Shown piece by piece: positions 26,998-35,632 of a stretch of DNA of 64,000 bases. How positions within the stretch are numbered: the stretch's first letter is position 1; the number at the start of each line of letters is the position of its first letter. Below the pieces are notes generated by a model. It saw nothing but the letters and a program-made list of their open reading frames with translations, ran no database searches and was not told the origin of the DNA. The DNA comes from Oligoflexia bacterium (lineage in GTDB: Bacteria > Bdellovibrionota > UBA1018). The stretch is taken from positions 261 to 64,260 of the forward strand of contig JAMPXJ010000007.1 in the NCBI GenBank assembly GCA_023701205.1, given 5' to 3'. The translations under genes were made by a program, and so were the position numbers.

Positions 26998-27276
26998 ATG
27001 CTGCGCGCCCTGAAGTTCGGTGGCGGCTCCTGGGGTCTCGCGCTCGTTTCGGTCTTTCTGCCGCTTCTGCATTTCGTTCTGGTGCCTGCATTTCTGATCG
27101 CCGGACCGCTCGTGGCGTTCTTCGTATTCAACCAGGAGTCGCTGGTTCTCGGAGGGAAGGGAAAGTGCCCGCATTGCGGCGGGGATTTTTCCATCCGCAG
27201 GGGCGCGCCGCGATTTCCGATCAGCGATCTTTGCACCCGATGTCAGCGGACGGTGCTGGTGAGGGCGGGCGATTAA
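26998..27276 (+). CDS. small membrane protein with a C-terminal zinc ribbon
   Basis: 92 aa (or 124 aa from TTG at 26904). Two TM helices, then CPHCGG...CTRCQ. Confidence 0.35.
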   Translation: MLRALKFGGGSWGLALVSVFLPLLHFVLVPAFLIAGPLVAFFVFNQESLVLGGKGKCPHCGGDFSIRRGAPRFPISDLCTRCQRTVLVRAGD

Positions 27277-28985
27277 CGCTGTTGCGCGCCCAAATCCTCG
27301 GAGCCGACTTCGGCTTCTTCCGCCGGACCTCCGAACTGATTGCGTCGCATCGCCTCCTCGTAAACAGAGCGCGGGCTTCGCTCCGCGAGCCAACGGGTCA
27401 TGCCGAGGACCGCCTGAACCAGGTCGGGGTCACGAAAAACGAGAATCTGCTCGTTGTTCGTCTGCGCCGCCTGACTGAAGTTGAATGATGTACCTAAGAT
27501 CACGTAGGGTCCGGTCGCCAGCACCTTGTGGTGAATTTTGGCCGTGATGGCGTGGCTGGTGCCGTCGATCTTCACGTGATGGTTATTGTATTCCGGCGGG
27601 GCGATCCGGATCTGCGGCCGGAGCGCATCGAGCTGGGCGGGGGAGAGCTCCTGATGCCAGGCGTTCTGGGCATCTTCCTCGTACGTCTTCTTCTTCTTTG
27701 AAAGTTTCACCTGCTTCATCCCGGACATGAGGAGGAACTGGCTCCACGGCTGCATGGCGAAGGGCGTGTCGCCCACCGAGAGGAAGTCGAAGCTCTTCTG
27801 GCGCGAATGTTCCCGCAGGGCGCGCTCGCGCAGAGCGGTGGCCACCTCTTCCGAGGAGTAGGCGAATTGCAGCAGCCGGACGGGTCCTTGCGAGCTCTTG
27901 ATGAAGTGCGCGATGAGGTTCTGGTTGATGTTGCGGTAACCACCTCCGGGCGCGAAGGTGATGATGAGCGAGTGCTCGGGATAGGCTTCGAGCGTCTCGG
28001 GTGGAACGCCAGGCCCCGTCACCTGGAAGGACCCGGTCGTCGGATAGCTCGCGCCGCGGAACAGGAAGGCGGGATCCAGGGTCTTCGTCAGCTCATGCTG
28101 GACGAGATTGGCCAGGAGCCAGGAGCGCATTGTCAGGACGTGGTTGGCGTTCGGGACGGATTCGGGGGGCCGCTTTTGCGGCGGCAGCGCCTTGAGATCC
28201 CCTTCGGGGCCGAGGCAGGATTGGGTGAGGTTTCCGGAGGAAAACAGCACGCGGGCCTTCTCGGGGTCTTCCCAGTCGATCGCGGCGAGCTTCTGATGGT
28301 TGAGGCTCACGCTGTTGACCGGAGTCACCGCCACCCCGCCGGACACCAGGCGGTCTCGCACGCGCGCGACCTCGGGACGCAGCGCGACCACGTTCTTGTC
28401 GATGCCGACGCGCACCGAGACGCCGGCGGCCGCTTTCCTGACGAGATCTTCAGCGACCTCTTCAAGATCGAAGTCGAAGACGTTGAGGATGATCTGGCGC
28501 TCGGCCTGCTCGAGGAAATCGCGCCAGACCTGCACGAGATCGGACTCACGGACCAGGGATTTACCGAGGTAATAAGGGTGCGAAGCGTGGAATTTGAGCT
28601 CCGAGTACCCCGGCTGGCCCCGGGGCGGAATGAGCCGAAGGTGCTTGGTCGGATCCGGGTTTTGCGCGGATTCGGCCGCCACGGCCTTGAGGAGTTCTTC
28701 GCGGGGGGAGTCGATTCGCGCGGGTTCGTTTTGCAGAAGCTCGATAAGTCGGGACTCGACATTGGCCTTGCTGAGACGCTTCTGCACCTTCGGATCGTCC
28801 GAGCGCAGCACCTCGCGGCTTCTCCTGAAGATTCTCGGATAGTCGGGTCCCTGGAGCTCGGCGGAGCGGTCCAGCGAACCGGGTTGCCGTTGCGCCCCCT
28901 TGTGCGAAGGGCTGGAGCAGCCCGCCGTCGCGAGCGCCAGGTTCAGAAACGCGATCAAGATCCAGCGCGGAGTGCTTGAGCTCAT
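27273..28985 (-). CDS. phospholipase D-superfamily lipoprotein (two HKD-type motifs)
   Basis: Lipobox LATAGC|SS. Motif 1 is NHQKLAAID...SSGN (HxKxxxxD...GSxN). Motif 2 is IHHKVLATG...GTSFNFS. Confidence 0.7.
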   Translation of the reverse strand: MSSSTPRWILIAFLNLALATAGCSSPSHKGAQRQPGSLDRSAELQGPDYPRIFRRSREVLRSDDPKVQKRLSKANVESRLIELLQNEPARIDSPREELLKAVAAESAQNPDPTKHLRLIPPRGQPGYSELKFHASHPYYLGKSLVRESDLVQVWRDFLEQAERQIILNVFDFDLEEVAEDLVRKAAAGVSVRVGIDKNVVALRPEVARVRDRLVSGGVAVTPVNSVSLNHQKLAAIDWEDPEKARVLFSSGNLTQSCLGPEGDLKALPPQKRPPESVPNANHVLTMRSWLLANLVQHELTKTLDPAFLFRGASYPTTGSFQVTGPGVPPETLEAYPEHSLIITFAPGGGYRNINQNLIAHFIKSSQGPVRLLQFAYSSEEVATALRERALREHSRQKSFDFLSVGDTPFAMQPWSQFLLMSGMKQVKLSKKKKTYEEDAQNAWHQELSPAQLDALRPQIRIAPPEYNNHHVKIDGTSHAITAKIHHKVLATGPYVILGTSFNFSQAAQTNNEQILVFRDPDLVQAVLGMTRWLAERSPRSVYEEAMRRNQFGGPAEEAEVGSEDLGAQQR

Positions 28986-29038
28986 GGAGGTCCCCCGGGC
29001 TCTTTTCGGAATTCCGGCGGGAAACTGGAATTTGTCTA

Positions 29039-31570
29039 ATGGTTTTGGCGGGTTTTCCCGAAACGAGAACAGTGAGAGGCCTGATTCCCGAGTTCAGGAT
29101 ATTTTCCGGCTTGGTTCCGATTCTCTTTTCGCTGCCGGCACACGCCTGGCCGCCGACTTTCGGGCCGGAGTTCACGTTCACGAATCCCGAGATCCTCGAG
29201 GTCGGTAACCGCAATCCCACGAACGCGAAATCGGAGATCAACTCCGCGAAGCTCGAGCAGTGGCGCGGGGTCCTGGTCGAGCGCTGCAAGCAGCTCGGCT
29301 GCGAGGTTCGAAGGACGAGTGACAAGCACGGCGCAGCGCACCGAGTTTCATTTCCGGATGGCTGGTATTTCAACATCTCCCTCGACGCCGCCGTGCTCGA
29401 GGTTCAGACGAAGCCCGGAACGCTCGAGGATTTCCGCGCGCGGAAGGAACTCATTCAGAAGGAGATCTTCGAGACAGCGCGCTCCATCGGCATCGAGCCG
29501 CACAAGCGCGCCGGCCAAGGTCATATCCACATCGATGTGGATGAGGCTTTCGGCCAGGACAGCCGGCTGCTGCGCAATTTCTTCGTCGACTACTCGAACC
29601 ATCCGGAGCTGGCCTGGGGCGCGCTCGGCAACCATCTCGGCAACAGCCCGCCCGTCGCCGCGCTCAAGCCGGAGCAGCGCAAAGCGCTGATCCATGCGCT
29701 TCAGGAGTTTGACGCCCACCCGGGCACGCATCGGGAGTTCGGCGATCTGATCGACCGAAACGTCTATACGCACGGAACGGTCGCGGAATGGGGCTTCCCG
29801 CGGCATTATCAGGCCCTGCGCTTCGCCTGGAATCTCAACACGATCGAGATGCGCGGGTTCCGTCCCCAGCGTTCCGCGGATGAGTTCGTGAAGGAGCTCG
29901 AGCTGATCCAGGGTCGGATCGAGCATCTCAAGAAGGTTGAAGGAGCGATTCCGTTCGTCAATCCTCCCACGCACGAGCTTCCGCTCAAGGAAGTCGTCAC
30001 GCGCTTCTACGGCTATGTGACCGAGTCGGGGCTCGACTGGGAGACGTATAAGACCCTGCTGCCGCCGGAACTCGTCGGGATCCAGCCGGACACGAAGCGG
30101 TTTCCGAAACCCAAGCTGCGCAACGAGGCTTTTGACGAGGTTCGCGATGCGAGCGGGGGCCTTCGCGAACGCTATCGCGGCGTCCATGAGGTTTACGCCG
30201 GAATGTCTGTGATAGAGCGGCGGGCCTTCGAGGCGGCCACGTTCAAGGAGTCCGCCGGGAACCGGAGCCTCCTTCCCTTGCCACGCCTCCTGAGCGTGGA
30301 GGAGCGCGACGAGATCAAGAAGGGCGTGCAGCAGCGCGCTCGGGCGCTTCAGCTTCTCGCCGAGGATGTCGCGAAGGGGAATTACGAACGCATTGAGGCA
30401 TTCGGGCTTCCGCGGTCCATCGTGAAGGCAGCGCTGGCGCGGAGCGGGGAGACCGAAGCGGTGAAGGCGCTCATGCCCGAAGCGATCGCATTTCCTTACG
30501 GGCCGGACCTGATCCGTGGCCCGGACGGAAGATACCTCGTGATCGAGGACAATACGGGCTTCGTCGGTGGCATCGGCGACTCGTCCTACTCGCGGGAGCA
30601 GCTCCTGCGTCATCAGCCGGCGTACCGGCAGTTTCTCGAGCAGGATCGCGGCAAATCGGCGGTCGAGATCCTTGTGGAACATCTCCGGAAGCTGGCCGTG
30701 CCGCCGGACGGAGAGCTGGTCATGGCAGTGCACCCCGATATGAAGGTGAACAATGCGACCCTGTCTTCACAGCTGGAGAAGCTGGGTGTCCGGGTGATCT
30801 ATGGTGCCAAGAGTGAGCTGAAAGTCGATGCCGGGGGCGTGTTCCTGAACATTGATGGTGTTAAGCGCCGCGTGGGCCTGGTTCTCCCGAAAAACTATGC
30901 CATCGGTGGTTTTGCAACCCAAACCGTTCCCGGTCTGGAAGAAGCTGCAAGAGCGGGCAAAGTGGCGCTCGGATATCAGGCGGGCCTGGAGTTCCTCGGA
31001 GACAAGGAGATCTCTCCTTATGTGGAGAAGCTGATCCGCGGCTATCTTGGGGAAGCGCCGATCCTGGGCACTCCCGAAACCCATTCGCTCAAGCTGGGGC
31101 AGGGAGCCGATCCGGCGCTCGTCGAGGCGCTCACCGAGAATCGCGAGGCATACGTGCTCAAGCAAGCCGATGGAAGGGGCGGGAGCGAAGTCTGGATCGG
31201 CAAAAAAACCTCCAGCTCCGAGTGGCGCTCGTTGCTCAAGAAGGCGGTGAAGGAGCCGGACAGCTTCATCGTCCAGAAGTTCACGCCCCTCTCGGAACTC
31301 GAGGGGCATATCGTGGACATGCGGCCGGTGACCTACGTGAGCCGGTTCGGCGCCGACGTCGCGGATCATTTCTGGGCGCGCGCGCTCCCGGTGGATGGCA
31401 ACGGCAAGGTGAACGTCTCCATCGATGGCAAGGTCACGGCGGTCTTCGTGACGGACCCGAAGAAATACCCGGCGCAGCCGGAGCTGGACGTGCCTGCGGC
31501 CGCGCGCCCGGGAGGGTTCCCGGGCTCCTCTTTTTGCGCGCGGCTTTTTGAAAAGCTGTTCCGTCGTTGA
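29039..31570 (+). CDS. two-domain ligase: N-terminal glutamine-synthetase/GCS2-like amidoligase domain fused to a C-terminal circularly permuted ATP-grasp domain
   Basis: The N-terminal half contains WYFNISLDAAVLEVQTKP, AGQGHIHIDV and NTIEMRGFRP. These parallel the GS/GCS2 motifs of YbdK (LGIELEMQ, GQHVHVG, TVEVRVMD). The C-terminal half contains LVIEDNTGFVGGIGDSSYS and YVLKQADGRGGSEVWIG...IVQKF, an ATP-grasp nucleotide-binding segment placed C-terminally as in CP-ATP-grasp proteins. The ORF track starts at 28976 and would overlap the PLD gene start, so M22 (29039) is more plausible. Confidence 0.55.
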   Translation: MVLAGFPETRTVRGLIPEFRIFSGLVPILFSLPAHAWPPTFGPEFTFTNPEILEVGNRNPTNAKSEINSAKLEQWRGVLVERCKQLGCEVRRTSDKHGAAHRVSFPDGWYFNISLDAAVLEVQTKPGTLEDFRARKELIQKEIFETARSIGIEPHKRAGQGHIHIDVDEAFGQDSRLLRNFFVDYSNHPELAWGALGNHLGNSPPVAALKPEQRKALIHALQEFDAHPGTHREFGDLIDRNVYTHGTVAEWGFPRHYQALRFAWNLNTIEMRGFRPQRSADEFVKELELIQGRIEHLKKVEGAIPFVNPPTHELPLKEVVTRFYGYVTESGLDWETYKTLLPPELVGIQPDTKRFPKPKLRNEAFDEVRDASGGLRERYRGVHEVYAGMSVIERRAFEAATFKESAGNRSLLPLPRLLSVEERDEIKKGVQQRARALQLLAEDVAKGNYERIEAFGLPRSIVKAALARSGETEAVKALMPEAIAFPYGPDLIRGPDGRYLVIEDNTGFVGGIGDSSYSREQLLRHQPAYRQFLEQDRGKSAVEILVEHLRKLAVPPDGELVMAVHPDMKVNNATLSSQLEKLGVRVIYGAKSELKVDAGGVFLNIDGVKRRVGLVLPKNYAIGGFATQTVPGLEEAARAGKVALGYQAGLEFLGDKEISPYVEKLIRGYLGEAPILGTPETHSLKLGQGADPALVEALTENREAYVLKQADGRGGSEVWIGKKTSSSEWRSLLKKAVKEPDSFIVQKFTPLSELEGHIVDMRPVTYVSRFGADVADHFWARALPVDGNGKVNVSIDGKVTAVFVTDPKKYPAQPELDVPAAARPGGFPGSSFCARLFEKLFRR

Positions 31571-31840
31571 CGGTTACGCCGCCGCGAAGAGCCCTCCCTC
31601 AGCGCTTCGAATATACGCTCGAGCTCGCCTGGAAAGTCGCGAAAAGGCGATCTCGACCTGCTCATCGAAGGCACTCCGCCACTTCCCGGCGCCCGGATCG
31701 AGGCCCTGAGGGATGCGCTCGAGGAAAGCGACTTTCCGTTCAAAGTCGATCTGGTGAGGATGGAAGAGCTGGTCCCGTCCTACCGTGACCAGATTCTTTC
31801 GGAACGAAAGCTTTTTTGGGAGAGCCAGTCCGGCGGCTGA
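31571..31840 (+). pseudogene. MNT/MntA-type minimal nucleotidyltransferase (HepT-MntA antitoxin family) remnant, no start codon
   Basis: The open frame begins immediately after the TGA of the ligase gene, in the same frame: RLRRREELSPSASNIRSSSPGKSRKGDLDLLIEG...FKVDLV...LSERKLFWE. It has the GS...D[LI]DLL[IV]E and KVDLV signatures but no Met or plausible start. No HEPN partner follows. Confidence 0.45.
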
Positions 31841-31862
31841 GGGCCAAGCCCACCGGCACGGA

Positions 31863-33056
31863 TTAATGCTTATTCCAATCGTTTTCGGGCATGACCCGTT
31901 TCATGAATTCATCGAAGAGGGGCACGGTGAAGGCCGTATCGCCATGATTCGGGCTCCAAATCATCCCCTTACCGATCAGGCTGCTCCGAGTCGGACCTAA
32001 TGAGCTGACGATCCGGTTAAGCTTCTCCGCAATATCTCCCGAACGGTGAGGTCCCGCCCCGAGTGCGGCCATCGCGCGGAGGTATTTCTTCTCTGAAGGG
32101 GTAAGTCGGTCAAAACGAACGCGAAAAAAGCTCTCGTCAAGAGCTGCGACAGCCTGGGTGGAAGCCGCGTGGACGTCAGCAACGGTGATCGGGCTTCTGG
32201 TCGCAACACTCCAGGAATGCTTTCCCCACTCCTGCAAGAAATAAGGATAGCCGCGAGTCTGCTCTACGATGGCCGCCACTGCTGCAGGCTCAAATTCCAC
32301 ACCTAGGTCAGACGCCGGCTTTTCAAGCGCCAGACGCGCGGCGGCGATGGGGAGAGGGCCTATTTCCGGATAGTCAAAGAGTCGTTCGGCATAGGACTTA
32401 GCATTACCAGCGCGGCCGCGAAGTTGTGGCAGCCCGGCTCCGACAATGCAAACCGGTAGTTTTTGCTGAGCACATCGATGAAGTGCAGTAATGAGAGCAG
32501 CAAGCTCCGGCTCCGCTACATACTGAAGTTCATCGATGAATATCACGAGAGCTGTCCCGGCCGCTTTCGCGGCGCGACCGACCTCCTCAAGGAGCATAGC
32601 TAGATCGAGTTCAAGGTCGCCGTTATCGGCAAATCCTGGTTCAGGATCGTAGTCGAGTCCAACTTCGATATCTTGGAATTTTACCTTGAGAGCCCTGACA
32701 AAACCGGCGAGACCGCGAAGCGCTCTTACCGCGACATCCTTGGCCTTATCGATCCTGCTAAGCCGCAAGAGCGCCAACCGCAACTGCGGCGCCAATATAG
32801 CGGGAAGCGAGCGACCCTCGGGAGCCTCAATTCGAACCGTATGTATTCCCGCGGCCTCTGCATCATTCCGCATCTGATCGAGTAAAACCGTCTTACCTAC
32901 ACCTCGTAGTCCAACCATGACGACGCTTTTCGCCGGATTGCCCAAGCGAATACGTTCGAGCGCGATCCGAACCGAACCGCGCAGCTGATCGCGACCAGCC
33001 AGTTCAGGAGGAGGGGTGCCCGCGCCAGGTGAATAGGGGTTTTGTATTGGATCCAT
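31863..33056 (-). CDS. archaeal-type AAA ATPase (Arch_ATPase/DUF234-like P-loop NTPase)
   Basis: Walker A GLRGVGKTVLLDQ and Walker B ALVIFIDELQYV, with a C-terminal winged-helix-like tail. The gene sits in a lower-G+C stretch. Confidence 0.6.
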   Translation of the reverse strand: MDPIQNPYSPGAGTPPPELAGRDQLRGSVRIALERIRLGNPAKSVVMVGLRGVGKTVLLDQMRNDAEAAGIHTVRIEAPEGRSLPAILAPQLRLALLRLSRIDKAKDVAVRALRGLAGFVRALKVKFQDIEVGLDYDPEPGFADNGDLELDLAMLLEEVGRAAKAAGTALVIFIDELQYVAEPELAALITALHRCAQQKLPVCIVGAGLPQLRGRAGNAKSYAERLFDYPEIGPLPIAAARLALEKPASDLGVEFEPAAVAAIVEQTRGYPYFLQEWGKHSWSVATRSPITVADVHAASTQAVAALDESFFRVRFDRLTPSEKKYLRAMAALGAGPHRSGDIAEKLNRIVSSLGPTRSSLIGKGMIWSPNHGDTAFTVPLFDEFMKRVMPENDWNKH

Positions 33057-33253
33057 TTGATGAACTATATAGCGATATTAGGCAGATTACAACATATAGA
33101 TAAGTTTTGTAATTTAACTATAAATGAACATTTAAATAGGCAAGACATGGAAACTACTAAAGTAAATCAACAGCAGCACTTTGAGTGCTCGCAGTGTGAG
33201 CCACAGTAGCGGGCGGCCTTACTCTCTCCTGGAAAAAGCCCGATAAGCAATCG
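33057..33253. promoter_or_regulatory. AT-rich divergent intergenic region (probable promoters for the AAA ATPase and the secreted 792-aa protein)
   Basis: About 200 nt of strikingly AT-rich sequence, ttgtaatttaactataaatgaacatttaaatagg, between two divergent starts. Confidence 0.35.
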
Positions 33254-35632
33254 ATGAGATCAAGCATGCGGGCCCTCCTACTCGCAGGGATGTTGACGTT
33301 TCCCGGCGTGCACCGCGCGCAAGCCGGGCTGCCGGTCCCTCCAGCCCCGGGCATTCCCGTCCTCAACCGGTGCAAAACAAGCTTCGAGGAGCTTCTCAAG
33401 GCGCCCGTATTTCAAAGATTCGGCCTGGGAGAGAATTTTTCCGCTGCTCAGGACAAAATCCTGATCGCCCGGGGAGAGGTACTTGCGCTCACGGAGAGAA
33501 GACTGGAACGCAATCCTACGCATTCCAGGCTCCAAATCCATGAGCATCGCGTGAGTCCATTGGTCCTGCTGGATGCCAAAACAGAGGCGCGGATCTCTGA
33601 CTGGCATTCGATCCTGGAAAAGGTGGACCAAAAGCTGGGCGAGCTCGGCGACAGCCTCGTGGATAAGAAGGCGAACTTTCCTAACTTCGGGCTCTCATCG
33701 GACTCGAAAACAGTCGCTCTGCAGGTCCTCACCGGGTCGGGCCCTCGCGTGGTCCTTTTTGATTATGGAAAAGGCGAAGTCCGACAGGTCTTCAGGCCGC
33801 TTCTGAATCGGCAGACGCCCGCAGTCCGCTTACAGCATGATCGTTATATCCTGCTGACTGACCGAGCCGAAGGTGGAAGCGTCAATCTGATCCTGGATAC
33901 CCAGACCGGAAGCCAAAAAATCCTGGAGGGCTCGCGATACGCGGACATTTCAGTTTCACCCGATGGAGAAAGACTCCTCGCGCTGATTGGAGATACGCTC
34001 TGGTATGGCAGATTGGACCAGCTCGGAAGCAGGGAAGTCATCGAAGATGCCGCTTCGCTTAAGTCCCTGAAAGGGAAGCTCGTCTCTCAATCGCCTGACC
34101 TGAGCCAACTCGTGGTGAATCATGGAGAGCAGACCTGGGACCCGGCAACCCAGACCTCGTTCCACCTGCCTGTCCTGAAGGTGGCCACTTGGAAGGGGAA
34201 CTCCTATCGGGAACAATTCCTTCCCGGTCTCGAAAATTTGTCCCTGAAATTCAAGGAGGCCAAAAACGCGGGCATGGAGCTCCTGCGGGCGGACGTTCAG
34301 GGAAAGCAGACACCGGATGGCCATTACCTGGCGGTGCGCTTCCCGATGCGAGCCAAAACAGAAACCCTCCCTAAGAGGGGTTTTCGCCAAGAGGTCGTGG
34401 CAGAGTATGACATTGTGGGCCTTTGGGACCTCCGAAAGCCGGGAAGCCCACCTGCTTTCACGGCCTCCCGGGATCTCAACTCACCAGGAAACTACGAGCC
34501 CACTCTGGACTCCGCCATTGCCTCGGCTCAGGCGGGCGAGACAGTGCTGCGAAAGGTCGCTTTTGAGCTTTCAGACGATGGCAAGCTCACTCTGGTTCGC
34601 GTCACTTCTGCTGATTCAAATCCAGCGTCCCCGCAGCGAGCTTTTCCGAAGCTGGATTTTGCGGTCTCAGAAATTCGCCTCGTCGGTAACGGGCAGGTCG
34701 AGCGGTCGCTCGATGCGCAAAGCTTTCCGCTCAAAACACTCGGTGAGGGGGATAATCCGGGAGCGCCTCTGCTTTGGGGATCTATCGACGTCAGTGCCGA
34801 CGGCAAGCGTGTGGTTGCTCATACTCGCAACGAAGGGATTCTTTACTTCGAGCGGGAGCGAGGCGGCCTTTCCACGGCGGGCCCTGATCCGATCCATCCG
34901 GCTTCCGGTGTAACAGAAAAAACCGGGAAAGGTCAGTTCGCGGAGATCCTGAAGAAGGTTCCCGCCTCTTTCAAGCAAACACACCTGACTCATGAGGATC
35001 GCGAAAAGATCCAGGCGATATTTTCGATGGGTAATCTCTCTCGCAGCGATCAGCTTCGCAATGCGTTCGAAGCCTACCGTGAGGCGAGATTGCGGGGCCT
35101 TGGGCGCAAGGAACGGGAGCAGGTGCTCAAGATGCTCAAGGAGCTCCGGGTCAAGAAAAGTCCCTCTGGCTCGGGCTACATGAGGGCCAATGCTTCGGGA
35201 ATCGTCATGCCCGAGGAGCTTCATGGCACCGCCGCGCACTACGGTGTGCTGTCCCATGAGCTGGAGCACCTGATTCAGATCGTGGAAGCAACCCCTTCGG
35301 CCAGTCCGGCTGAATTACGGCGGCTCTACGGGCACCTCACGCAGGAGCACGCGCAGGTCAATCTCTGGGAGATCGGCGCCTCGAAAGGCGAATGGGAGTT
35401 CCTGAGCGTGGTCCCCGCGTCGATCAGGAGCGAGGCGGAACAGTCCGCGCAGCAAAACCTCGGTGATCATGGGCTTCGCCTGGCCGTCACCGAGATTCTC
35501 CAGTCAGCGGGTGGCTCCCTGCAGGATCATATCGCCCGGAAGATCAATCTCGGGATCCTGCGGATGCCCTTGGACCGGGATCTTACTTCTTTAGAGTCGA
35601 GTGTTCCGTCGGGGCGGGTGATTTCGCAATAA
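33254..35632 (+). CDS. large secreted protein with PD40/TolB-like beta-propeller repeats and a C-terminal HExxH motif
   Basis: Signal peptide MRSSMRALLLAGMLTFPGVHRAQA. PD40-like repeats: ISVSPDGERLLAL and DVSADGKRVVAHT. The C-terminal segment YGVLSHELEHLIQIVE follows. Confidence 0.5.
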   Translation: MRSSMRALLLAGMLTFPGVHRAQAGLPVPPAPGIPVLNRCKTSFEELLKAPVFQRFGLGENFSAAQDKILIARGEVLALTERRLERNPTHSRLQIHEHRVSPLVLLDAKTEARISDWHSILEKVDQKLGELGDSLVDKKANFPNFGLSSDSKTVALQVLTGSGPRVVLFDYGKGEVRQVFRPLLNRQTPAVRLQHDRYILLTDRAEGGSVNLILDTQTGSQKILEGSRYADISVSPDGERLLALIGDTLWYGRLDQLGSREVIEDAASLKSLKGKLVSQSPDLSQLVVNHGEQTWDPATQTSFHLPVLKVATWKGNSYREQFLPGLENLSLKFKEAKNAGMELLRADVQGKQTPDGHYLAVRFPMRAKTETLPKRGFRQEVVAEYDIVGLWDLRKPGSPPAFTASRDLNSPGNYEPTLDSAIASAQAGETVLRKVAFELSDDGKLTLVRVTSADSNPASPQRAFPKLDFAVSEIRLVGNGQVERSLDAQSFPLKTLGEGDNPGAPLLWGSIDVSADGKRVVAHTRNEGILYFERERGGLSTAGPDPIHPASGVTEKTGKGQFAEILKKVPASFKQTHLTHEDREKIQAIFSMGNLSRSDQLRNAFEAYREARLRGLGRKEREQVLKMLKELRVKKSPSGSGYMRANASGIVMPEELHGTAAHYGVLSHELEHLIQIVEATPSASPAELRRLYGHLTQEHAQVNLWEIGASKGEWEFLSVVPASIRSEAEQSAQQNLGDHGLRLAVTEILQSAGGSLQDHIARKINLGILRMPLDRDLTSLESSVPSGRVISQ

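Follow-up and report, generated by a model that had tools for sequence, protein, structure and literature searches.

What can a stand-alone ATPase gene be for, when no effector or other partner gene stays beside it? The question is raised by a stretch of 64,000 nucleotides (here called the window) of contig JAMPXJ010000007.1 from an Oligoflexia bacterium (assembly GCA_023701205.1). At 31863-33056, on the minus strand, lies an open reading frame (ORF) that runs from ATG to TAA and encodes a 397-residue AAA+ ATPase of the ORC/Cdc6 and Arch_ATPase type, with an AAA+ base, a helical lid and a C-terminal winged helix-turn-helix (wHTH). An earlier, sequence-only reading had delimited this ORF correctly and had described its product as an orphan in an island of possible defense or mobile-element character. 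We find that the gene is solitary throughout its family and that it travels with a short AT-rich region immediately upstream, at 33057-33124 (minus strand), overlooked in that reading, which contains a palindrome and a promoter. Judging from sequence, and with somewhat better than even confidence, we interpret gene and upstream DNA together as a single-gene module of about 1.26 kb that is portable, leaderless and negatively autoregulated and would encode an ATP-dependent DNA-binding switch.

Limits of the conserved unit

The nearest relative of the gene occurs at locus L010, in another Oligoflexia metagenome-assembled genome (MAG), with 96% identity in protein and 89% in DNA. Similarity between the two loci begins 67-68 nt before the ATG and ends 2 nt beyond the stop codon; neither the 6 kb on the upstream side nor the 0.7 kb on the downstream side is related, leaving the 1264 bp at 31861-33124 (minus strand) as the sole DNA common to both. 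Other pairs of loci, at 81-89% nucleotide identity, place the left limit at -56 to -72 (-15 for one pair) and the right limit at -7 to +8 (+27 for one pair), and in five further pairs no additional matching segment was found in the flanks, even with 6 kb taken on both sides. Column information is raised from -70 to -1 and falls near zero just past the stop codon and beyond about -70. The case that the sequence-only reading had named as the one to watch for, a housekeeping ATPase kept in conserved synteny, is excluded: the 96% identical protein of L010 shares no flanks with the window gene, and the five further pairs behave likewise.

Flanking direct and inverted repeats in 77 loci were no longer than in shuffled controls, with neither terminal repeats nor target duplications above chance, and transposon-like ends were rejected on that ground. 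With the repeats at chance level, and with more DNA inserted at one locus (L007, described below) than the module comprises, selective retention is the most likely cause of the sharp limits, not precise cut-and-paste. In L066, a Rhodobiaceae MAG, the module is flanked by a perfect 14-nt direct repeat, TGGGGTTCGGCGCT, with one copy about 96 nt before the ATG and the other about 31 nt beyond the stop codon, and an 11-nt direct repeat flanks it in L081. Given the chance level across the 77 loci, these two repeats may be coincidences or single recombination scars.

An upstream palindrome that contains the promoter

Alignment of 74 loci reveals, in the AT-rich upstream region, a palindrome with four invariant TTA/TAA triplets. 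Its core, TTA-N6-TTA-N11-TAA-N6-TAA, at 33078-33112 (minus strand) in the window, is a putative operator with two plus two half-sites. The core is matched once in the 64-kb window, against an expectation of 0, and it occurs exactly once in 51 of the 89 fetched loci, always just upstream of the gene. Paired cells amount to 75% in the true register, compared with 31-46% when the partner arm is slid, and the covariation score of 0.215 exceeds those of all 500 shuffles (mean 0.128). RNAalifold found no consensus RNA structure upstream, Rfam has no match in the window, and many arm positions are unpaired; an RNA hairpin or riboswitch was accordingly rejected in favor of a DNA operator. Since the arms contain unpaired positions and RNAalifold returns no structure, a symmetric protein-binding site fits better than a hairpin.

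The sole sigma-70-like promoter in 31700-33350 sits in this palindrome. Its -35-like hexamer, TTGTAA (33087-33092, minus strand), lies inside the right palindrome arm, and a 17-nt spacer separates it from the -10-like hexamer, TATAGT (33064-33069, minus strand), located 7 nt before the A of the ATG (33056). The window gene has no Shine-Dalgarno motif, and such motifs were seen in just 7 of 86 loci. Across the same 86, the distance between a TAnnnT hexamer and the start codon has a sharp peak at 6-7 nt (41 loci); TATAAA occupies this place in most others. With the -10 box 6-8 nt from the start codon and the Shine-Dalgarno motif mostly absent, leaderless mRNA is predicted to be the norm. In a subgroup with 399-residue proteins from Acidobacteriaceae and Oxalobacteraceae (L028, L034, L054, L057, L062, L068, L070 and L081), a TATAA box directly adjoins the ATG, which leaves room for a promoter only at a more distant upstream position, possibly a TATAGT-like box in the left part of the palindrome; this would make a leadered variant of the module. 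An AAGAGG-like motif, resembling a Shine-Dalgarno sequence, is found 7-10 nt upstream of the start in L070, and also in the related Acidobacteriaceae loci L048 and L085.

Plasmid homologs with 38-53% protein identity have palindromes at the same position, of other sequences. The two-plus-two arrangement recurs in the Clavibacter, Rhodococcus and Arthrobacter plasmid homologs, at 38-42% identity. On Clavibacter pCI3 the palindrome reads GTCTC...GTCTC.TGTCA / TGACA.GAGAC...GAGAC, with 28-nt arms, and ends 16 nt before the ATG; on Rhodococcus pROB01 the arms measure 25 nt and abut the ATG; Arthrobacter pYA7-1a has two plus two TTTATT/AATAAA half-sites; and Protochlamydia has a TTA-N7-TTA variant. 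The pCI3 palindrome is GC-rich; behind it, in contrast to most members, comes a clear Shine-Dalgarno motif, AAGGAG. In the protein, the recognition helix of the wHTH (about residues 350-362) differs between subfamilies, and the wing motif G-x3-F-T-V-P is invariant across them. Variation of recognition helix and palindrome beside an unvarying wing is as expected if the protein recognizes its own operator, and does not amount to proof.

Architecture and relationships of the protein

The sequence-only reading had described a P-loop ATPase with Walker A and B motifs and a wHTH-like tail, and each of these elements is borne out. The Walker A motif, GLRGVGKT (residues 49-56; 32889-32912, minus strand), has invariant G49, G52, G54 and K55. 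The Walker B motif, VIFIDE (residues 171-176; 32529-32546, minus strand), falls on a modeled strand at 170-175; D175 is invariant and E176 nearly so in a family alignment of 103 sequences reaching down to 37% identity, and both are invariant in a comparison of subfamilies. R225 (codon at 32382-32384, minus strand), in the invariant SYAERLF motif just before strand 5, is invariant in the subfamily comparison and nearly invariant among the 103 sequences. An AlphaFold2 model built from a diverse alignment (mean predicted local distance difference test score, pLDDT, 97; predicted template modeling score, pTM, 0.93) places R225 immediately before a short strand at about 227-232, and its conservation and modeled position make it a candidate arginine finger.

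In the model, an AAA+ base comes first, with an insert of two helices (84-99 and 103-123) that follows strand 2 and lies between strands 72-77 and 170-175; next is a helical lid bearing an invariant GYPYFLQ motif. The C-terminal wHTH, residues about 318-380 (31917-32105, minus strand), is modeled as helices 320-331, 339-346 and 350-362 plus a wing strand at 373-376; the corresponding region of one homolog matches MarR_2 weakly. Nucleoside triphosphatase (NTPase), lid and wHTH take up all 397 residues, with no sensor repeats or effector domain, and a synonymous-site entropy scan was flat along the ORF (0.81-1.01), indicating no embedded element.

Family searches give a mixed answer to the label Arch_ATPase/DUF234-like that the sequence-only reading had proposed for checking by hidden Markov model. 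Pfam AAA_16 (PF13191) scored well above its threshold (64.1 bits vs 32.6, E = 3e-17, residues 18-205), and AAA_22 matched at 1.3e-9. The gathering threshold of PF01637 (Arch_ATPase/ATPase_2) was not reached in the Pfam search (21.7 vs 33.2 bits), nor was that of nSTAND1, and DUF234 gave no match at E <= 0.01, the C-terminus being modeled as a plain wHTH. By fold the archaeal label holds: the three-domain arrangement is that of the solved Arch_ATPases 2qen (PABY2304) and 2fna (SSO1545). Identity to these archaeal PF01637 proteins is just 17-18%, and compared with them the present family is bacterial and plasmid-borne, keeps one strict architecture, is extremely conserved and has a putative cognate palindromic operator.

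The best sequence-profile match in the PDB is ORC4 (1e-8), Orc/Cdc6 proteins are also top in Foldseek, and in structural alignment the helical bundle (helices 237-284) and wHTH match Orc/Cdc6 structures. As hallmarks of the ORC/Cdc6 clade, PMC12839542 lists a helical insert that follows strand 2, an arginine at the foot of strand 5, and a helical bundle with a wHTH behind it; the insert, the bundle and the wHTH are recognizable in the model, and R225 is a candidate for the arginine. The family shares with Orc1/Cdc6 initiators the insert that follows strand 2, the helical bundle, the wHTH, and a gene that adjoins an inverted-repeat DNA site, and may share an arginine finger before strand 5. Archaeal orc1/cdc6 genes adjoin origins flanked by inverted repeats, and the present gene might by analogy encode a replication initiator for a plasmid or integrated element, an Orc1/Cdc6-like protein with its own origin in the form of an adjoining ORB-like inverted repeat that has an AT-rich spacer. 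On Clavibacter pCI3 (L093, 1-965) the homolog lies directly after a parA/parB-like pair at the start of the record. We nevertheless consider an initiator very unlikely. The NCBIfam model for orc1/cdc6, TIGR02928, is far from its cut-off (22.3 bits vs 181.3) and covers only the N-terminal 54 residues. On the Legionella plasmid a separate RepABC-type module lies 17 kb from the gene, which is placed in an accessory region, and the Dietzia plasmid is likewise arranged; most copies are chromosomal and solitary, one of them inside a mur/ftsW operon. The conserved non-coding DNA, only about 68 bp, is promoter-sized and coincides with the promoter. A role as plasmid replication initiator was disfavored given the separate Rep on the Legionella plasmid and the placement of the gene in accessory DNA.

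A wHTH joined to an AAA_16 NTPase, with a putative operator overlapping the promoter of its own gene, could also describe an ordinary ATP-dependent transcription factor, a minimal relative of MalT or IniR that controls distant host genes besides itself. There is a precedent in mycobacterial IniR, whose ATPase domain was modeled on SSO1545 and which binds and activates a promoter (PMC5760070). MalT and IniR, however, are STAND regulators of 800-900 residues with ligand-sensing helical repeats and a LuxR-type HTH, and they control linked host operons, in contrast to the present 397-residue protein, which has neither a sensor domain nor a linked target. No second operator core was found in any of the roughly 10-kb loci, linked targets or synteny, as expected for a host regulator, are not kept, and the gene moves between phyla alone. 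A host transcription factor is therefore an unlikely explanation.

Distribution, descent and selection

The window protein is a typical member of a very large, unnamed and uncharacterized family. In a protein search that returned at least 8000 candidates, the best 120 matches were 76-100% identical. An exhaustive search of 50%-identity representatives yielded 7675 clusters at E <= 1e-3, 1116 of them reaching E <= 1e-30; almost all have members of 380-420 residues that align end to end. A one-genome-per-species collection contains at least 573 loci in about ten phyla. The best 80 of these encode proteins of 392-399 residues, 71-96% identical, in Oligoflexia, Bacteriovoracaceae, Myxococcota, Alpha-, Beta- and Gammaproteobacteria, Acidobacteriota, Verrucomicrobiota, Gemmatimonadota, Planctomycetota, Nitrospirales and Chloroflexota. 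Homologs also occur on 121 plasmids, of Rhodococcus, Arthrobacter, Clavibacter, Sphingobium, Legionella, Protochlamydia and others; with plasmids included, the homologs span 38-96% identity at the same protein length. Phages almost never carry the gene: one of 50,697 phage records has a homolog, a single PHROG of unknown function matched, and a search of viral folds in BFVD gave only generic AAA+ folds and no close viral fold, and a phage origin was rejected accordingly. The rare long members look like read-through fusions, for example to LeuA_dimer, and were set aside as sources of informative domain fusions. Literature searches found no description of the family.

A neighbor-joining tree contains family-level clusters (Acidobacteriaceae, Verrucomicrobiota, Oxalobacteraceae, and Bdellovibrionota with Myxococcota) together with clear placements across phyla; descent has thus been vertical at short range, with horizontal transfer at long range. 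The GC content of the gene correlates with that of its host (r = 0.69; 0.46-0.96 at third codon positions), as for copies that are long resident and not recently spread. For nine close pairs the ratio of nonsynonymous to synonymous substitution rates (dN/dS) lies at 0.024-0.053; between phyla, synonymous substitution has reached saturation, and 115 of the 397 residues are invariant. The protein is under very strong purifying selection.

Gene neighborhoods

All ORFs within 4 kb on either side of the gene in 84 loci were clustered all-against-all. No family occurred in more than seven loci, and positions varied. In a Pfam census of the 132 nearest credible neighbors no family appeared more than twice, and a recurrent transposase or integrase neighbor was not found (2 of 132). 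The nearest neighbors include FtsW, ribosome recycling factor, a tRNA synthetase, dehydrogenases, a few integrases, and PIN and AAA_21 proteins. A conserved partner gene was rejected on the strength of the clustering and of the Pfam and PADLOC censuses. The sequence-only reading was right that the ATPase stands alone, and its term "orphan" misleads: the solitary state is invariant in a family of at least 1116 clusters at 50% identity and is not the loss of an effector partner.

Its placement of the gene among defense islands fares less well. About 8-11 of the 132 nearest neighbors match PADLOC defense models (AriA, mad3, DpdC, HEC-01A, TIR-pAgo, PDC-S01/S02), a share that is probably above background yet a small minority, and many of the others are housekeeping genes. 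For the protein itself no system in PADLOC-DB v2 was matched, the best hit being a partial one to mad8 (2.5e-5, 22 bits), with nothing beyond the level of the P-loop. MADS mad8 and the ORC/Cdc6-like ATPases of BREX-type defense (BrxC, BrxD and DUF499) belong to multi-gene systems with methyltransferase, PglZ, helicase or nuclease partners, in contrast to the present gene, which has no linked partner in the loci surveyed. Sensors of the Avs/NLR-type STAND class likewise differ in having C-terminal sensor repeats or an effector domain, and known Avs families are far less conserved.

These observations bear on the possibility that the protein is a stand-alone anti-phage or anti-plasmid defense NTPase, a minimal ORC/STAND-like sensor with no fused effector, whose output would be ATP-driven oligomerization on DNA, for example to block replication or transcription of an invader. 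Such an activity would be compatible with an autoregulated module, and we regard it as possible, if on the whole rather improbable. The patchy distribution, dominated by horizontal transfer, the many plasmid copies and near absence from phages, the minority of defense-related nearest neighbors, and the toxin-antitoxin modules, HNH nucleases and recombinases seen near the gene in several loci all point toward it. Database matches confined to the P-loop, an invariant architecture with no sensor repeats or effector domain, and neighbors that are mostly unrelated to defense point away, and a dN/dS of 0.02-0.05 with 115 invariant residues is atypical for defense proteins.

A more specific version would make the gene an autonomous conflict element of a new kind, an effector-less, Orc-like "minimal NLR" whose sole output is ATP-gated assembly on DNA. 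That assembly would block replication or transcription of incoming plasmids or phages, or would silence DNA; the module could work on arrival in any bacterial phylum thanks to a leaderless promoter that does not depend on the host and to an operator that co-evolves, and the extreme conservation would reflect contact with a target under universal conservation, for example DNA itself, the replicative helicase or RNA polymerase. We hold this version to be doubtful.

Linkage to transposition genes was seen once. On Rhodococcus opacus B4 pROB01 (L096, 1-2749), genes for a TnsA-like protein and a Tn7-like DDE transposase lie directly upstream of the ATPase homolog and divergent from it; none of the other loci has such neighbors. 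These TnsA- and TnsB-like genes, and the AAA_22 match, would suit an orphaned transposition helper, a TnsC-, MuB- or TniB-like target selector left by a decayed transposon. That origin is highly improbable: the pROB01 gene is divergent from tnsAB and not downstream of it, transposases do not recur among the neighbors, terminal inverted repeats and target duplications stay at chance, and the gene, with a putative operator of its own, is kept by strong purifying selection while standing alone.

Three further arrangements may be recorded. In L007 (GCA_021733565.1, JAKFZD010000169.1; 7774-10298) the ATPase gene and a 191-residue ORF lie between ftsW and murD in an otherwise canonical cluster, murE-murF-mraY-murD-ftsW-murG-murC-murB, with the ATPase gene on the strand opposite the operon. 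In L001-L006 (5727-11015), from Pseudomonas oryzihabitans and relatives and including plasmid NZ_CP044073.1, the gene is part of a larger shared block of about 5.3 kb, with genes for an S49 peptidase, an HNH protein and a 53-residue ORF, and three convergent ORFs of 113, 58 and 379 residues. L008 also has a downstream ORF of 379 residues, which did not cluster with the Pseudomonas one.

A proposed self-regulating module

In the reading we favor, a single-gene module would spread horizontally among bacteria and then be inherited vertically for a while. Its gene would be transcribed from the sigma-70-type promoter as a leaderless mRNA, which would free expression from host-specific ribosome-binding signals and so make the module portable between phyla. 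Through its wHTH the protein would contact the two plus two half-sites of the operator that precedes its gene, either as a dimer of dimers or as a larger oligomer that depends on ATP, and once bound would occlude the -35 box and the spacer and repress its own transcription. The same ATP-gated DNA binding and oligomerization would be its working activity elsewhere in the cell. For that activity a role related to conflict or to mobile elements is, tentatively, the most likely, because the gene is found on plasmids, in variable regions and sometimes in defense islands, and almost never in phages.

Several points weigh against this picture. Autoregulation and the leaderless transcript are both inferences from sequence only, and the factor that binds the palindrome could come from the host and not be the encoded protein. 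Pairing fails at many variable positions in the arms, with four pairs unpaired in 33-40 of the 74 sequences, and two distant homologs, L094 and L095, show AT-rich repeats in which no inverted repeat stands out clearly. Expression is not leaderless throughout the family, as the Acidobacteriaceae/Oxalobacteraceae subgroup and the Clavibacter AAGGAG motif indicate. No mobility mechanism is evident, with terminal repeats and target duplications at chance in the 77 loci, and the DNA inserted in L007 exceeds the module. A conflict role, finally, is weakened by the extreme conservation and the mostly non-defense neighbors, so low a dN/dS being unusual among genes engaged in arms races.

Against the libraries and literature searched, what is new is the combination of a solitary gene, a palindromic putative operator that travels with it, a probable leaderless promoter, spread across phyla and strong constraint. 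If the interpretation holds, few portable regulatory units on record would be as compact as this one, which fits promoter, operator and gene into 1.26 kb and crosses at least ten phyla while the protein stays 71-96% identical. It would also imply that the Orc/Cdc6 and Arch_ATPase lineage has a widespread bacterial branch that is still unnamed. With a single gene and a site of 68 bp, the module offers a tractable entry to the function of Arch_ATPase-type proteins, and bears as well on whether effector-less modules of NTPase and wHTH act in defense or in mobile-element biology.

Surroundings in the window

The neighbors that the sequence-only reading had assigned to the ATPase gene in the window look much as described there. 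Downstream, at 31567-31840 (plus strand), is a probable degraded toxin-antitoxin remnant of the MNT/HEPN type, with weakly matching fragments of both components: a fragment with FEYTLELAWKVAKRR matches the HEPN-type NTase_sub_bind family at E = 3e-4, and a 64-residue fragment in another frame resembles a nucleotidyltransferase C-terminus at E of about 0.02, both below Pfam thresholds. Upstream and divergent, at 33254-35632 (plus strand), a secreted-looking ORF of 792 residues has a signal-peptide-like N-terminus, MRSSMRALLLAGMLTFPGVHRAQA, and no match in Pfam, NCBIfam or PADLOC. Neither neighbor recurs beside homologs in the 84 loci. The ATPase gene and the 792-residue ORF lie in a common GC trough (0.535-0.576, with about 0.62-0.65 in the surrounding DNA) and may on that account constitute a small acquired island, about 3.8 kb long. 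The window contains no tRNA, and a tRNA-linked island was rejected for that reason.

Beyond the toxin-antitoxin remnant, at 28976-31570 (plus strand), is a gene for an 864-residue protein whose C-terminal half is a circularly permuted ATP-grasp domain (CP_ATPgrasp_2, 1.9e-34) and whose N-terminal residues, about 430 in number, match no family. Its TTG start overlaps by 10 nt the start of a divergent gene at 27273-28985 (minus strand) for a 570-residue PLD-like protein (PLDc_2, 8.9e-13). The latter has weak matches to DrmC of DISARM and a lipoprotein-type signal (…LATAGCSSP); since it looks secreted, it is probably not a DrmC-type defense nuclease.

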